64,000 nt of DNA from Eubacteriales bacterium (GTDB lineage Bacteria; Bacillota; Clostridia; Oscillospirales; UBA644): NCBI GenBank assembly GCA_045542115.1, contig JAZQKK010000014.1, forward strand, positions 253,646 through 317,645. Reading direction: 5' to 3'. Of this stretch, positions 8,103 to 64,000 are shown one piece after another. The translations under genes were made by a program, and so were the position numbers. Numbering within the stretch: position 1 is the stretch's first letter; each line of letters begins with the position of its first letter. The notes under the pieces were generated by a model. That model searched no databases and had not been told where the DNA came from. It was given only the letters and a program-made list of their open reading frames with translations.

Positions 8103-8986
8103 ATTTTTCGGGATTTTACGGGAACGACCCCATCAAAACCATCCTAAATTCCCACCTGTTCCACGCCTATCTGATCGAAGGACCGGAAGGGTCGGGGAAG
8201 CATACGCTCGCAAACCTTATCACCAACGCACTGGTCTGCGACGGAGAGAACCCCCCTTGCGGAACCTGTCGGCAATGCTATAAGTTTCGGGAACGGTGCC
8301 ATCCGGATATTATCGATATTCCTTCCGACCTTCCGGTGGATGAAATGCGGCAAGTGTTGGCGGGAATCGTACTGACCCCTAACGATGCAAAGCACAAAGT
8401 CTACCGCATCGACAAGGCGGAAAAACTCCACCCCGCAGCCCAAAATCTGTTGTTGAAGACGTTGGAAGAGCCGCCGGAGTACGCCGTTTTTCTTTTGCTG
8501 TGCAATGCGAAAGAAGGGGTGTTGGAAACGGTGCGTTCCCGGTGTCAAACCTTAACGACGGCACCTTTGCCGGAATCGGTGATTCGGGACCATTTCATTA
8601 AGACCTTCGGTTCTTATGACGAAAAGGCACAAAATGCGGCGCTGCTGTCCGCGGGATTTTTGGGGAAAGCCGTGGAACTGTATCAATCGGGAGACGGAGA
8701 AGCGGTGGAACGGTGCAAAGCGCTGATTGAAGCTCTGCAAAAAGGAGATGTTCCCTGCGTCTTTCGGATTTTTAATTTCAAAGACCGGGAACAGTTAACG
8801 GCCTTTTACCGAGCCTTTTCCCTTCACGTAAAACGCTGTTTACGGGATTGCACCCCTTCGCAACGCCGGTTTTTCGCCGACTTGGCCCAACGGTGGGACG
8901 AAATGGAAGAAGCAATGCAGACCAACGTAAACGTGAAGCTGTGGAATACCAATCTTGCCCGGCTCTGCCTGAAAGCAAGAAGATAA
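8099..8986 (+). CDS. holB: DNA polymerase III delta' subunit
   Basis: HAYLIEGPEGSGK, CGTCRQC zinc module, AAQNLLLKTLEEPP, TVRSRC. Confidence 0.9.
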   Translation: MNFSGFYGNDPIKTILNSHLFHAYLIEGPEGSGKHTLANLITNALVCDGENPPCGTCRQCYKFRERCHPDIIDIPSDLPVDEMRQVLAGIVLTPNDAKHKVYRIDKAEKLHPAAQNLLLKTLEEPPEYAVFLLLCNAKEGVLETVRSRCQTLTTAPLPESVIRDHFIKTFGSYDEKAQNAALLSAGFLGKAVELYQSGDGEAVERCKALIEALQKGDVPCVFRIFNFKDREQLTAFYRAFSLHVKRCLRDCTPSQRRFFADLAQRWDEMEEAMQTNVNVKLWNTNLARLCLKARR

Positions 8987-9015
8987 TTATTTTTTTCAAA
9001 GAAAGGATCACTCCA

Positions 9016-9990
9016 ATGATTGAAATCATCGGAATCCGTTTCCGCAATGCGGGAAAGATTTATTATTTTGCCCCCAACGGCGTTGTGGCCGAACCGGGAC
9101 AGAAGGTCATCGTTCAGACCGTCCGGGGAATCGAAATCGGCACGGTAGCCCTTGGGAATAAGGAGATTGACGAATCGGAAAATATCAAAGACCTTTCCCC
9201 CGTGCTTCGTCTTGCCACCGAGGAAGACCTGCAACGGGACAAGGAAAACCGGGAAAAAGAAAAAGCCGCCTTTGACGTTTGTGAAGAAAAGATTAAAAAG
9301 CACGGCTTGGATATGAAGCTTATCAGCGTGGAATACACCTTCGATTGCTCGAAAATCGTATTCTGCTTTGTTGCGGAAGGTCGGGTAGATTTCCGGGAGT
9401 TGGTCAAAGATTTGGCCGGCGTGTTCAAGACCCGAATCGAACTGCGGCAAATCGGCGTTCGGGACCAGACTAAGACCATTGCGGGATTGGGACTGTGCGG
9501 ACGAAAGGTTTGTTGTGCCGGATTTTTAACGGATTTTGACCAGATTACGGTCAAAATGGCAAAAGACCAGGGATTGTCATCCTCTCCTCAAAAAATTTCC
9601 GGTCCCTGCGGGAAATTGATTTGCTGTTTATCCTTTGAACAAAAGGCTTATGAAGCGGACTACAAGGAACTTCCCAAGATGGGTTCCTACGTTAAGACCC
9701 TCAACGGTTGCGGAACGGTCTGCGAAGTGTCTGCTCTCAAACAAGGGGTTCGTGTCCGTCTGGAAGACAAGCCGGACGAAGCCCCCGTCTTCTATAAAAA
9801 AGAAGAGTTGACTGACCCCAACGAGCCGGAACGGGAAACAACCCAAAAAGAAGAAATCCCTGCTCCTATCCTTCAAGAAAGCATCGAAGAAAAGAGCAAA
9901 GAACCGGCGAAAAATCCCCGTCCGAAGCATAAAAAGAAGCCGTTCTACAAAAAGCGCAAGCCCCAGCAAAAAAAGGAAAACGGACAATAA
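9016..9990 (+). CDS. yaaT: PSP1-domain stage 0 sporulation protein YaaT/RicT
   Basis: MIEIIGIRFRNAGKIYYF, RVDFRELVKDLA...RIELRQIGVRD, GLCGRKVCC, KISGPCGKLICCL. Lys-rich tail. Confidence 0.92.
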   Translation: MIEIIGIRFRNAGKIYYFAPNGVVAEPGQKVIVQTVRGIEIGTVALGNKEIDESENIKDLSPVLRLATEEDLQRDKENREKEKAAFDVCEEKIKKHGLDMKLISVEYTFDCSKIVFCFVAEGRVDFRELVKDLAGVFKTRIELRQIGVRDQTKTIAGLGLCGRKVCCAGFLTDFDQITVKMAKDQGLSSSPQKISGPCGKLICCLSFEQKAYEADYKELPKMGSYVKTLNGCGTVCEVSALKQGVRVRLEDKPDEAPVFYKKEELTDPNEPERETTQKEEIPAPILQESIEEKSKEPAKNPRPKHKKKPFYKKRKPQQKKENGQ

Positions 9991-62066: not shown

Positions 62067-62114
62067 CACCAAAAAGAACTACCCATCCGAATGGATGGGT
62101 AGTTCTTTTTGGTG
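62067..62114. terminator. Perfect 22-bp hairpin (tRNA-type terminator) at the prophage boundary
   Basis: CACCAAAAAGAACTACCCATCC-gaat-GGATGGGTAGTTCTTTTTGGTG. Confidence 0.8.
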
Positions 62115-62136
62115 GAGCGTAGGGGATTCGAACCCG
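62110..62136 (-). mobile_element. att-site remnant: isolated 3' end of a tRNA-Ala
   Basis: Minus strand CGGGTTCGAATCCCCTACGCTCCACCA: T-loop plus acceptor 3' strand with U70 (Ala G3-U70 identity). No D or anticodon arm upstream. Confidence 0.8.
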
Positions 62137-62261: not shown

Positions 62262-62996
62262 TCAAGATTTGTTCTTATCTCCCCTACAACAGAAGGAACG
62301 ACAACACATTTTATTGCACCCCCTACAATTTGCAGGAACACCTTCTTCTTCCTGAGAAGATTCCATCGAAGAGACTTGTCCTGTTTTTTGGTTTCCAATT
62401 TTAACTTTTTGATAATTCTCGATAATGTTATTAAGTAATTCTACAATTTTGGTTTCATCTTTTGAGGCAAAGGCAAAAGCAATCATAACACCCATCGCAG
62501 ATAATGTTTCAAGGAAGACAGAAACGATGTATAACTTAAGAAGTTCTTCCGACAGAGAAAAGGGACAACATTCAAGAGCATTTAACGAAATGAAGGCTAC
62601 AAGACACACATACTGAATGCTAAGCAATATTGAAAAGAATATTGTAAAAGTCTTCCGCAAACCACACTTACTTCTTTGCTGTTTTTCTAAGTGATCCGCA
62701 GACTTATCAATAATCTTATCCGTTACCTTTTGATAGCCTTGATCAGATTCGTATTCAGTCTGGGCACGATCTCTTGATGCACTGTCCAACCCATTAGTAT
62801 AATTTCGAGTCCGCTTATCTACTTCAACCTTCTCAATCAAGTTCTTTGGAAACACTAATTGAGAATTCAAAGGTGACCCTTTATCAGAAAGTATCGGATC
62901 ACTCTTGTCTGTTACCTGCTGGGGAGAACACTCTTTGTCTGGAATTTCACTTTTTTTAGCAGATTCAATATGTTGTGTTTTATCTTTTTCCGACAT
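62262..62996 (-). CDS. Hypothetical 2-TM protein with charged N-terminus and Cys-rich tail
   Basis: TM segments TFTIFFSILLSIQYVCLVAFISL and LYIVSVFLETLSAMGVMIAFAF; tail CRGCNKMCCRSFCC; 4-nt gap from the upstream gene, SD GGAG. Confidence 0.8.
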   Translation of the reverse strand: MSEKDKTQHIESAKKSEIPDKECSPQQVTDKSDPILSDKGSPLNSQLVFPKNLIEKVEVDKRTRNYTNGLDSASRDRAQTEYESDQGYQKVTDKIIDKSADHLEKQQRSKCGLRKTFTIFFSILLSIQYVCLVAFISLNALECCPFSLSEELLKLYIVSVFLETLSAMGVMIAFAFASKDETKIVELLNNIIENYQKVKIGNQKTGQVSSMESSQEEEGVPANCRGCNKMCCRSFCCRGDKNKS

Positions 62997-63000
62997 ACTA

Positions 63001-63591
63001 TCAAGCTCCTATCTGCATTCTCGAAATAACAGCCTCTGGTGTAACCCCAAAAAAAGCAGCAATGGAAGCTATATTTTTCAATTCAAGAGCTTTGTCATAA
63101 AAAATCTTTGATGGCATTAAAACTCTCAACGCGAATATATTTGCAATTTGCTCACGTAATAAATAACTACTGTCTCCATAGTCTTTTTCGGATATATTTG
63201 TAATTTTATAATGAATATGAGTGCTGACAATATAATTATCCTTACGCTCAGCCATCTCCTCCTTGCTCATCGTGGCAAGGTGTCCTAATTCGTGTAACAA
63301 GGAAAAACGCTGGAATAATTCATTATTATCGGTATTTAACACGATGGTCGCACTATGCGCATGTTCACTCTCATCTATCTCAACAAGCATCATTGCACCA
63401 TACTTTTCCTCAATACCTAAACCTTCAAAGGAGTGTGGCATAACCTCGATTTGCATGTCAAGGCTTCTTTCAAGATACTCTAACACACTTGATGTGCTAA
63501 CAATTTGATCCTGAGAAAGCGGAATACAGCTTAATACTTCATCCGATTTCTTGTACGCTACACTTAGATTCTCATTATACACAAAACTCAC
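63001..63591 (-). CDS. ImmA/IrrE family (DUF955) Zn metallopeptidase without HTH
   Basis: QRFSLLHELGH (HExxH) and REQIANIFALRVLMP, plus IAAFFGVTPEAV..R. GTG start. Confidence 0.88.
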   Translation of the reverse strand: MSFVYNENLSVAYKKSDEVLSCIPLSQDQIVSTSSVLEYLERSLDMQIEVMPHSFEGLGIEEKYGAMMLVEIDESEHAHSATIVLNTDNNELFQRFSLLHELGHLATMSKEEMAERKDNYIVSTHIHYKITNISEKDYGDSSYLLREQIANIFALRVLMPSKIFYDKALELKNIASIAAFFGVTPEAVISRMQIGA

Positions 63592-63711
63592 CCCTGCTCA
63601 CCTCGGCGCTTTCTTTGAAAAACTCAACTTTTAAAATTGAGAGTTGTTGTTCAAAACTTTAAACCGAGACTGACTTTTTATGGAAAAAACTTGTTTCCTT
63701 TCTACAATTAT

Positions 63712-63740
63712 ATTATATCACAGAAGGACTCAAAAGTCAA
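63712..63740 (-). promoter_or_regulatory. sigmaA promoter of the peptidase/2-TM cassette
   Basis: Minus strand TTGACT-N17-TATAAT with an extended -10 TG. Confidence 0.75.
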
Positions 63741-63747
63741 TAATGAG

Positions 63748-63789
63748 TTTTCCACAGATTTCATATGGTTTTCCACAAACTTATCCACA
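63748..63789. promoter_or_regulatory. Three tandem DnaA boxes
   Basis: TTTTCCACA at 63748 and 63769; perfect TTATCCACA at 63781. Confidence 0.6.
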
Positions 63790-63871: not shown

Positions 63872-63912
63872 CAAAAAAAATAATCCCTCCACGGCTCAAT
63901 TTCCGTGGAGAG
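63872..63912 (-). terminator. Terminator after the holin
   Basis: Minus strand CTCCACGG-aaattgag-CCGTGGAG then GGATTATTTTTTTT. Confidence 0.7.
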
Positions 63913-63939
63913 ATCTCTCTATTTACTCATTTTTTGTTG

Positions 63940-64000
63940 TTACTCTTTCAATTCGGGAAGACCTGCCACGCTGGTAAGTAGGGAGATGATTCCTGCCAGC
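63940..64000 (-). CDS. C-terminus of a phage holin (r1t-like family), partial
   Basis: LAGIISLLTSVAGLPELKE-stop, recalled as the conserved LAG..SLLTS.AGLPE ending of r1t-type holins. Only 19 aa visible. Confidence 0.75.
   Translation of the reverse strand, partial: LAGIISLLTSVAGLPELKE

Follow-up and report, generated by a model that had tools for sequence, protein, structure and literature searches.

What does a zinc peptidase without a DNA-binding domain do beside the gene for a small membrane protein at the very end of a prophage? The question is raised by a two-gene cassette in a 64,000-nucleotide stretch of DNA from a Eubacteriales bacterium (the window), which the original prediction had proposed as a candidate new anti-phage or toxin–antitoxin system. 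Here, we report a computational analysis of this pair and of its relatives in other genomes. The peptidase and the two-transmembrane (2-TM) protein encoded after it probably constitute a new type of membrane toxin that is guarded by a protease, and we infer an anti-phage or toxin–antitoxin role for the pair.

All of the sequence features ascribed to a cassette at the prophage end are present, on the minus strand (Table 1). The coding pair takes up ~1.3 kb. The stop codon of the peptidase gene is followed after 4 nt by the ATG of the 2-TM gene, for which an AGGAG motif falls within the final peptidase codons; the peptidase gene itself has GAGGTGA 6 nt 5' of its GTG, and an alternative public gene call places the GTG three codons downstream, giving a protein of 193 aa. 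Judged by sequence match alone, the promoter-like site is the best match to the consensus in the region (11/12, with the TG present). At the 3' side, the hairpin, which shares 4 bases with the start of the att repeat, could act as a bidirectional terminator and is likely to mark where transcription of the cassette stops. With its own promoter-like site, terminators and a GC content of 36.5%, which is 11 points under the 48% of the rest of the prophage, the cassette is compositionally foreign and holds up as the self-contained unit that had been proposed. Upstream of the -35 element, the triplet of DnaA-like boxes forms a possible operator; the motif occurs eight times in the 64-kb window, where 1.75 occurrences are expected, and three of the eight lie within 42 bp. 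The boxes were rejected as a conserved regulator of the cassette, since none of 16 homologous cassettes has them upstream. In a search of sequence runs only three matched, all of them gut-metagenome DNA and each containing a small fraction of the sequence words that had been sampled.

Table 1. Features of the cassette and its flanks; positions are those of the window unless another sequence is named.
Feature	Position	Strand	Description
Holin	L002:2585-2818; stop codon at 63940, extends past window edge	-	phrog_443, E = 2.6e-15
Late/lysis operon intrinsic terminator	63915..63882	-	13-bp stem, 7 GC pairs, T8; ATTTTTTTTG
Three direct TT(A/T)TCCACA boxes, DnaA-box-like	63748..63789	+	Directly 5' of -35
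Promoter-like site	63740..63712	-	TTGACT-17-TGnTATAAT; sigma-A/sigma-70-type, extended -10
M78 peptidase gene	63591..63001	-	196 aa, GTG start
2-TM protein gene	62996..62262	-	244 aa, ATG start
attL, left prophage boundary	62107..62135	-	Duplicated 3' end of tRNA-Ala(GGC)
Hairpin with A/T flanks	62071..62110		Perfect 18-bp stem, AAAAAGAACTACCCATCC-GAAT-GGATGGGTAGTTCTTTTT, read from sequence

The host prophage of ~38 kb is inserted at a tRNA-Ala gene. Its attL is identical at 28 of 29 bases to L003:18591-18619, the 3' end of the intact tRNA-Ala(GGC), which lies 37.9 kb from attL and adjoins the tyrosine integrase. An endolysin gene lies upstream of the phrog_443 holin, and the pair is one gene past the endolysin, with this canonical holin between them; the cassette does sit, as had been noted, in the slot between the lysis genes, ending in the holin terminator, and att. 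The prophage repressor (L003:14655-15620), located 37 kb from the cassette, carries an HTH and an S24 autoprotease domain and is of the self-cleaving type.

The first gene of the pair encodes a member of Pfam family PF06114 (Peptidase_M78; E = 1e-14) with an intact HELGH at residues 100-104 and EQIANIFALRVLMP at residues 147-160. Its description as free of an HTH is borne out by Pfam and by the AF2 model, which is single-domain (pLDDT 94), and no HTH gene adjoins the pair. Foldseek matches this model to IrrE (3dte, 6.6e-6), PprI (8sln) and CapP (7t5t, 5.9e-4), with alignments to their peptidase domain that span all 196 aa; the GAF-like C-terminal sensor part of these proteins of 240-280 aa has no equivalent. 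The protein is thus predicted to be a minimal M78 (ImmA/IrrE-type) zinc metallopeptidase without a DNA-binding or sensor domain. Because its entire length aligns to the peptidase domain and the sensor part is missing, it looks constitutive in the model. PADLOC likewise recovered the generic M78 domain, through capP (5.6e-13, confined to the M78 core at profile positions 52-150 of 242) and RmrA (E about 1e-3, ranging from 8e-4 to 3e-3, over about 30-60 residues around HExxH), but returned nothing for the 2-TM protein.

The second protein has two hydrophobic stretches, TM1 at about residues 117-140 and TM2 at about 152-177, separated by a nine-residue loop. In the predicted structure residues 1-72 are disordered, a helix at 73-113 leads into TM1, and a C-terminal helix extends to residue 197 before a disordered tail; this layout suggests an N-in/C-in topology with helix 73-113 in the cytoplasm. 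The original prediction had described a charged N-terminus and a cysteine-rich tail. The tail is indeed present, with six cysteines (C224xxC227xxxC231C232xxxC236C237), but it occurs in only one of 149 family representatives, namely this copy, and was rejected as the functional core of the family; the long version of the N-terminus is not conserved in family alignments. Searches of Pfam and NCBIfam gave no significant match, and PHROGs gave weak matches to families of unknown function only (phrog_35754, 3.6e-4; phrog_5346, 2e-5). None of 27 2-TM members matched a holin family in Pfam or PHROGs. The best hit of a PDB sequence search was phospholamban (E = 0.8), and Foldseek searches of the model against BFVD and the PDB gave nothing at E ≤ 0.001 (best 0.56 and 4.4). 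The family, which is unannotated, comprises at least 265 clusters at 50% identity.

A gene beside a signal-less wall hydrolase is the usual position of a holin, and this is where relatives of the 2-TM gene outside phages are found. A homologue overlaps or abuts a CHAP + PG_binding_1 hydrolase in L007-9 and L050-53, a GH25 + LysM hydrolase in L011 and L054, and a CHAP + SH3 hydrolase in L013; these hydrolases have no signal peptides, and other holin candidates were not identified at these loci. Non-phage relatives are also operonic with a leaderless cytolysin (cholesterol-dependent-cytolysin-like). By predicted structure and hydropathy, the 2-TM protein resembles holins in being a small membrane protein with at least one TM helix and a hydrophilic, charged C-terminus. 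Because its relatives adjoin signal-less peptidoglycan hydrolases, it is best read as a holin-like helical hairpin, albeit one that falls in no holin sequence family of Pfam or PHROGs.

The two genes form a strict pair. Among loci found via the peptidase, the 2-TM gene is directly downstream in all 24 that could be tested, the co-occurrence that the original prediction required, with intergenic gaps from -23 to +35 nt; the peptidase always comes first and partner swapping was not seen. Over the same 24 loci the proteins have co-diverged, their identity matrices being correlated with a Mantel r of 0.89 (0/5000 permutations). The pair occurs at prophage ends, on ICE-like elements and at stand-alone sites; in L048 it is alone in the chromosome, and there, as in L025 and L047, neither phage nor hydrolase genes are nearby. 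Its distribution is sporadic: G000 is the only carrier in the 46 genomes of its family and among the 401 sampled in its order, and no further copies were found in the source genome or its relatives. A tblastn search of 50,697 deposited phage genomes gave no match to either protein. Scans of IMG/VR and of JGI metagenomes with the 2-TM alignment also gave none, and a scan of JGI metagenomes with the peptidase alignment added two pairs and one remnant. In all this the pair agrees with type II toxin–antitoxin systems in general, which consist of two small genes that run in one direction, are coupled in translation and are scattered among genomes on mobile DNA. Defence-type neighbours (AbiEii in L023, Mrr in L025 and AAA_14/HSDR_N in L047) make for a weak and anecdotal association with defence islands.

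Catalysis is not conserved throughout the family. Eighteen of 61 peptidases (~30%) are catalytically dead, with HExxH replaced by (Q/H)QxG(H/R) or similar, yet all 18 retain EQxANxFALRVLMP and their omega values of 0.14-0.23 indicate purifying selection. The hydrolase-linked non-phage relatives show this combination of a lost HExxH and continued selection, and L007-9 retain the 2-TM and CHAP genes without any peptidase homologue. Because ~30% of the family is dead yet conserved, proteolysis is not the sole mode of action of this partner, which modifies the earlier proposal that the peptidase either degrades a toxin or activates it. The dead but conserved copies are more readily explained if the partner binds or inhibits than if it is strictly needed for activation. 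Since the 2-TM and CHAP genes persist peptidase-free in L007-9, the 2-TM protein is not unconditionally lethal without its partner. In L047 and L023 the 2-TM gene is frameshifted beside an intact peptidase gene, whereas the reverse decay was found at none of the active-clade loci; these frameshifts were called on MAG contigs, in which assembly error is possible, and the pattern favours a protective peptidase.

These observations suggest the following mechanism; that the peptidase directly binds or cuts the 2-TM protein, that the latter is toxic, in which direction it is regulated and what sets it off are points that we infer. The dedicated partner of the peptidase would be the 2-TM membrane protein and not a transcriptional repressor, because there is no HTH in the pair, the prophage repressor is self-cleaving and the pair is also found outside phages. 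The peptidase would bind the 2-TM protein at its N-terminal, cytoplasmic portion, which the catalytically intact copy in the window may also clip, and would thereby hold it under the threshold for hole formation. Should this restraint be lost, for instance because host synthesis shuts down, an inhibitor acts or infection stresses the membrane, the 2-TM protein would oligomerise, and the resulting holes would depolarise or permeabilise the membrane and kill or lyse the cell. The module would then be a toxin–antitoxin or abortive-infection unit expressed in the lysogen. We give slightly less than even weight to the full reading, that of an autonomous, horizontally acquired two-gene moron in which an M78 peptidase restrains a holin-like effector as its antitoxin or antiholin.

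The regulation could have the opposite sign, although we consider this unlikely. The N-terminal extension and the cytoplasmic helix would then keep the 2-TM protein inactive as a pro-holin, and a signal such as infection or DNA damage would cause the M78 peptidase to remove this region and release an active pore. There is precedent in the characterised M78 proteases ImmA, IrrE/PprI and CapP, all of which are reported to be triggered by a signal and to cut a protein encoded by a neighbouring gene (PMC12828697, PMC13228613, PMC10440598). The 2-TM extension is 25-100 aa long where the peptidase is active and 10-25 aa in copies linked to CHAP, which have a dead peptidase or none, and the survival of the 2-TM and CHAP genes without a peptidase in L007-9 is also in keeping with a pro-holin. 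However, extensions of 66-82 aa stand beside dead peptidases in L010, L011, L013 and L054, and the idea that a long extension tracks an active peptidase was rejected on this ground. Purifying selection on dead partners is hard to square with cleavage as the function, the peptidase lacks a sensor domain, and the observed decay breaks the 2-TM gene and leaves the peptidase intact.

Another doubtful reading is that the pair serves the lytic cycle of the phage and not the defence or addiction of the lysogen, either as a second holin with a protease-type antiholin that times lysis or as a holin/regulator pair for protein export. The pair directly follows the endolysin/holin genes in at least five prophages (the window, L012, L021, L022 and L024), a constant place which could mean a role in the phage's own lysis, and the operons of the non-phage relatives, with their peptidoglycan hydrolases and leaderless cytolysin, have the layout of holin/hydrolase release. 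Nevertheless, the pair is cut off from the late operon by a strong terminator and a promoter-like site of its own, here as well as in L012, where the terminator–promoter–pair layout recurs 3' of the holin. Canonical holins (phrog_443, Holin_LLH and phrog_1129) are already present in pair-bearing prophages, the GC content of the pair departs from that of the phage, and the pair occurs at loci without a nearby phage or hydrolase (L048, L025 and L047) but not in the deposited phage genomes. That the peptidase is an ordinary ImmA-type anti-repressor cleaving a remote HTH repressor, next to an unrelated membrane protein, is very improbable in spite of its M78 domain with an intact active site and its nearness to att and int on the circular phage map: a plain ImmA/ImmR switch, against which the original prediction had rightly argued, is rejected because the prophage repressor has its own S24 autoprotease and the pair also occurs outside prophages, and strict pairing and co-divergence over 24 loci, non-phage ones included, as well as the L049 prophage, where, apart from the pair, a separate 241-aa M78 protein is encoded beside the HTH repressor, speak against it further.

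If a restrained holin-like effector is the correct reading, the ImmA/IrrE/CapP protease family would extend to the direct control of a membrane pore-former; to our knowledge, the characterised members so far switch transcriptional repressors. The 2-TM proteins would represent a new holin family of hitherto unannotated sequences, and the dead yet conserved partners provide a natural experiment, indicating that binding matters and not cleavage alone. The module is met in two settings, as prophage cargo and at chromosomal loci of gut Clostridia that seemingly release wall hydrolases and a leaderless cytolysin-like protein, which, if true, would tie phage defence and toxin–antitoxin biology to holin-dependent protein release. 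We tentatively suggest that M78-fold proteins, active or dead, may be an unrecognised class of holin regulators (antiholins) that form a portable module with the new holin family: a lysogen-expressed suicide or defence cassette in prophages, which would have been domesticated with a dead peptidase in gut Clostridia for the release of signal-less wall hydrolases and a leaderless cholesterol-dependent-cytolysin-like protein.

Several known systems resemble the pair in part. With ImmA/ImmR, IrrE(PprI)/DdrO and CapP/CapH it shares the peptidase fold, the HExxH and E..AN.FA motifs and the logic of acting on the product of the next-door gene. Here, however, the sole neighbour is a membrane hairpin and no cognate XRE-type repressor is adjacent. 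CapP/CapH systems comprise a CapH HTH, a regulated defence operon and a C-terminal sensor; this peptidase ends where the GAF-like sensor would start, and downstream of the pair comes att and no regulated operon. Bacterial gasdermins, too, are encoded beside a protease, in mobile or defence contexts, and a pro-holin would parallel their activation by neighbouring proteases. Their pore is a beta structure and not a helical hairpin, the protease is of another class, and activation by cleavage is not supported for this pair.

The holin/antiholin systems (lambda S105/S107, P1 LydA/LydB and T4 T/RI) offer a small protein with two TM helices and a hydrophilic C-terminus, whose triggering threshold could be set by a dedicated partner in the cytoplasm, and the 2-TM homologues that begin sets of signal-less hydrolase genes recall holin-plus-hydrolase release (type 10 secretion; TcdE-type). 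Unlike these, the 2-TM protein has no sequence or fold match to the holin families in Pfam, PHROGs, BFVD or the PDB, and the endolysin of this prophage is already served by a canonical holin. A full-text literature search found no report of an M78-family antiholin.

The closest precedent is RosmerTA, which is defined as a zinc-peptidase antitoxin with a toxin of unknown function (bioRxiv 10.1101/2022.05.11.491447). It differs in several respects. RmrA is about 360-400 aa long, usually with an N-terminal XRE HTH, whereas the present peptidase is a bare domain of 196 aa without the RmrA architecture or a match to the RmrA model as a whole; the 2-TM protein matches no PADLOC model, the RosmerTA set included, nor any family with a known function in Pfam, PHROGs or NCBIfam; and the fixed gene order, the lack of partner swapping and the dead sub-clade are peculiar to the pair described here. 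The likeness lies in adjacent genes for an M78/COG2856 zinc peptidase, of which the domain is clearly present here, and a toxin without recognisable domains, carried by phages or prophages. In the system of Gordonia phage Kita, RmrT is membrane-located and pore-forming and the peptidase is the antitoxin, the roles that we would assign to the 2-TM protein and its partner, and phage defence is reported for a RosmerTA pair that is encoded by a phage and has a toxin that depolarises the membrane (PMC10440598).

The peptidase gene and the downstream gene for a protein with two transmembrane helices (2-TM) both lie on the minus strand at the end of the prophage; the strand was the only point left unstated in the original prediction of a two-gene anti-phage or toxin–antitoxin cassette at 62262–63740, which described the unit accurately. 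The window spans C14:253646–317645 in a genome of 1.93 Mb and 37 contigs. An intact tRNA-Ala(GGC) lies 37.9 kb to the right of the 29-bp att repeat, and its 3′ end agrees with the repeat at 28 of 29 bases. The prophage between these att copies looks complete, encoding among other things an endolysin, a tail fibre, internal virion and tail proteins and a protein of 2966 aa. Its far end holds, in order, a cI-like HTH + Peptidase_S24 repressor, a 551-aa Mrr_cat protein, a tyrosine integrase and the tRNA-Ala. Left of att are host genes, named from their translations: a site-2 protease homologue, scpA-like, scpB-like, small sporulation-type and glyceraldehyde-3-phosphate dehydrogenase-like genes. 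GC content is 36.5% in the cassette, 48% in the remaining prophage and 49.5% in the host flank. The Mrr_cat gene is a second AT-rich cargo gene, so that each prophage end holds a foreign accessory gene. One of the three TT(A/T)TCCACA boxes upstream of the cassette is a perfect DnaA box, and the window contains eight such sites against 1.75 expected; they were not found ahead of 16 homologous cassettes, which makes them a local feature, perhaps an operator or a site that titrates DnaA.

Features of the cassette, its prophage and homologous loci (L numbers: L002 and L003, stretches of the same contig, C14, outside the window; others, loci in other genomes or metagenome contigs). Promoters and terminators, in the window and the loci, are consensus matches.
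Feature	Coordinates	Strand	Details
Holin gene, 3′ end	stop at 63940	−	phrog_443, E = 2.6e-15
Holin terminator	63915–63882	−	13-bp stem, T8
Three TT(A/T)TCCACA boxes	63748–63789	+	direct, within 42 bp, just upstream of cassette −35
Promoter-like site TTGACT-17-TGnTATAAT	63740–63712	−	best in region, consensus match
Peptidase ORF, 196 aa	63591–63001	−	GTG start, GAGGTGA 6 nt upstream
2-TM ORF, 244 aa	62996–62262	−	starts 4 nt past peptidase ORF; AGGAG within the final peptidase codons
Six-Cys tail of 2-TM protein	62262–62400	−	residues 198–244; predicted cytoplasmic, disordered
Perfect 18-bp hairpin	62071–62110		about 150 nt beyond 2-TM ORF
29-bp att repeat	62107–62135		shares 4 bases with the hairpin
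Single 2966-aa ORF	L002:6121–15021 = C14:321121–330021	−	outside window, between tail-fibre gene and tail genes
Mrr_cat gene	L003:15643–17298 = C14:350643–352298	+	outside window, opposite prophage end; 36% GC; C-terminal Mrr_cat nuclease domain; between repressor and integrase
Two M78 proteins in one prophage	L049:5943–6668 and 8795–9929
Decayed module remnant	L058:2402–3050		peptidase frameshifted; 2-TM gene cut after 14 codons (MFKKKKNQTSDDFS*)
Window			pair after prophage lysis cassette
L012			after lysis cassette: endolysin, 102-aa gene, Holin_LLH, terminator, promoter-like sites, pair
L024			after lysis cassette: M23 + PG_binding_1, holin phrog_1129, 73-aa gene, pair
L021			after lysis cassette: CHAP, pair further downstream, tRNA-Ser
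L022			after lysis cassette: M23 + PG_binding_1, pair further downstream, tRNA-Arg
L015, L023, L049			pair adjoins integrases or recombinases
L005			phage or ICE-like element; pair between 4738-aa polyvalent protein and terminase
L006			mobile element; pair after replication genes
L023			pair adjoins possible defence gene AbiEii
L025			pair adjoins possible defence gene Mrr
L047			pair adjoins possible defence genes AAA_14/DUF4143 and HSDR_N
L050–L053	L050:3125–5036; L051:8001–9912		chromosomal capsule or cell-wall locus
L011, L054	L011:2632–7220; L054:4642–9226		~840-aa cytolysin-like protein, GH25 + LysM, pseudo-M78, 2-TM protein
L010	2125–6553		cytolysin-like gene, then pair directly; GH25 + LysM absent
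L013			pair, then CHAP + SH3

The peptidase matches PF06114 (E = 1e-14) and, among PADLOC models, capP (5.6e-13) and, over short stretches only, RmrA, the peptidase antitoxin of RosmerTA (about 1e-3). HELGH and EQIANIFALRVLMP are intact. In a confident AF2 model (pLDDT 94, pTM 0.91) the whole chain aligns with the peptidase domains of IrrE (3dte, E = 6.6e-6), PprI (8sln) and CapP (7t5t), and also with an M. tuberculosis regulator (6cz6); these proteins of 240–330 residues run on into additional domains, whereas the cassette protein stops there, which leaves it just the M78 domain, with neither an HTH nor a sensor domain. Its neighbour is modelled as a helical hairpin, consistent with hydropathy: helix 73–140, whose final ~24 residues form TM1, a 9-residue loop, and helix 150–197, whose initial ~26 residues form TM2, with residues 1–72 and 198–244 disordered. 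The family (265 clusters at 50% identity with E ≤ 1e-3 in an exhaustive profile search, 132 with E ≤ 1e-30) conserves a core of residues ~77–200, preceded by a charged N-terminal extension varying from 25 to 100 residues. No named family was found for it in Pfam, PADLOC, NCBIfam, PDB or BFVD, and PHROGs returned only weak matches to families of unknown function. The CxxCxxxCCxxxCC tail is present in the window copy but in no other among 149 family representatives, and so does not extend to the family; this tail could serve metal binding or redox sensing, or could be a recent read-through extension beside att.

Loci were sampled via the peptidase family from species-representative genomes, homologous-protein look-ups and metagenome contigs, with simple ORF calls. 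The two genes do co-occur elsewhere, as the original prediction would have it: in 24 of 24 loci having downstream sequence, a 2-TM family gene lies immediately 3′ of the peptidase gene, the distance between them ranging from −23 to +35 nt (L014, where the contig ends, was left out). It is frameshifted in two of them (L047 and L023), possibly through error, since nearly all related sequences come from MAGs or metagenome contigs. After more distant M78 proteins the 2-TM gene was not found. The two proteins co-diverge (r = 0.89 between their pairwise identities in 22 loci; 0/5000 permutations), so that nothing suggests an exchange of partners. The module has a sparse, patchy distribution: it occurs in about 17 of 185,579 species representatives and was found in no other genome among 46 of the same family or 401 sampled from the order. 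In the L049 prophage, a 241-aa M78 protein belongs to a classical repressor-to-integrase module, and just past the integrase come a 197-aa M78 protein of the cassette family and the 2-TM protein paired with it, which indicates that the two M78 types do separate jobs.

Copies with intact HExxH are on mobile DNA, the pair in L048 standing by itself among host genes, and prophages carrying the pair already possess a canonical holin. The catalytic motif is lost in a sub-clade of 18 of the 61 peptidase-family clusters, HExxH mostly becoming QQIGH, QQIGR or HQIGH while the remainder, EQxANxFALRVLMP included, is kept. Omega in unsaturated comparisons is 0.14 (L011/L054) and 0.23 (L050/L051); this marks the proteins as pseudo-peptidases kept by selection rather than as pseudogenes. 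The six dead-clade loci that were examined all lie in chromosomes and are linked to cell-wall hydrolases or a cytolysin. L050–L053 run LytR, a large sortase-anchored surface protein, pseudo-M78, a 163-aa 2-TM protein, an overlapping CHAP + PG_binding_1 gene, Wzz and a CpsD-like kinase. In L011, L054 and L010 (rabbit-gut Lachnospiraceae/Oscillospiraceae MAG contigs and a Logan contig) the cytolysin-like protein carries Thiol_cytolysin and Thiol_cytolys_C domains. In L007–9 the peptidase homologue is gone (deleted in one lineage) and the 2-TM and CHAP genes persist. A small 2-TM protein whose gene sits at the beginning of a gene for a signal-less murein hydrolase, or overlaps it there, occupies the textbook holin position; in the dead-clade and L007–9 loci no hydrolase or cytolysin-like protein has a signal peptide, and no other holin candidate was identified. 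The operon layout in L011, L054 and L010 suggests that a leaderless cytolysin-like protein is released by a system of the holin/hydrolase type.

Overall, the data make the 2-TM protein, itself apparently holin-like, the probable cognate partner of the peptidase. We think it more likely that the peptidase restrains this protein than that it activates it: catalytically dead partners have been kept, as expected of binding and inhibition but not of obligate activation, and the two decayed active-clade loci lost the 2-TM frame and not the peptidase; as a sensor domain is absent, a constitutive guard fits better than a signal-activated trigger. The sequence comparisons show the anatomy, the pairing, the co-divergence, the mobility and the link to hydrolases. 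Interaction, cleavage, sign of regulation, toxicity, trigger and any defence phenotype belong to a model that we infer: the cassette promoter would drive both proteins in the lysogen, and the peptidase would bind the cytoplasmic N-terminal region or helix of the 2-TM protein, active copies trimming it and so holding it sub-critical. Guard failure would let the 2-TM protein form holes, depolarizing the membrane and killing the cell; if the prophage endolysin or another wall hydrolase is present, lysis could follow. This would be the logic of a toxin–antitoxin or abortive-infection module.

Activation of a pro-holin by peptidase cleavage is compatible with the mode of other M78 proteases and with survival of the 2-TM and CHAP genes without the peptidase, but is contradicted by dead partners that adjoin 2-TM proteins with long extensions, and by the selection acting on dead partners. 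The constant position after lysis genes suggests that the pair could be an accessory module serving the phage's own cycle, in lysis timing or export, a reading weakened by the terminator and promoter-like site that isolate the cassette, its foreign GC content, the existence of stand-alone copies and a search of 50,697 deposited phage genomes in which the pair was not found. An ordinary anti-repressor is essentially excluded by the S24 repressor, the separate M78 protein in L049 and the co-divergence.

We rate the cassette as a putative protease-guarded membrane toxin or holin–regulator pair; that it defines a new holin-regulator class, common to prophage cargo and chromosomal release systems for signal-less proteins, is a realistic possibility, though the odds are somewhat against it. 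In a full-text literature search, no M78-type antiholin turned up. The cassette would resemble holin–antiholin pairs functionally, although its 2-TM protein is in no described holin family. The model matches the published behaviour of RosmerTA: attempts to delete its peptidase gene gave no deletion (bioRxiv 10.1101/2022.05.11.491447), and one pair carried by a phage confers protection against some phages and includes a membrane toxin that forms pores (PMC10440598). The cassette's architecture differs, however, as the peptidase carries no HTH and the match to RmrA models is marginal. With ImmA, IrrE and CapP it shares the fold and the logic of acting on a neighbour, but its neighbour is a membrane hairpin, whereas theirs is a repressor.
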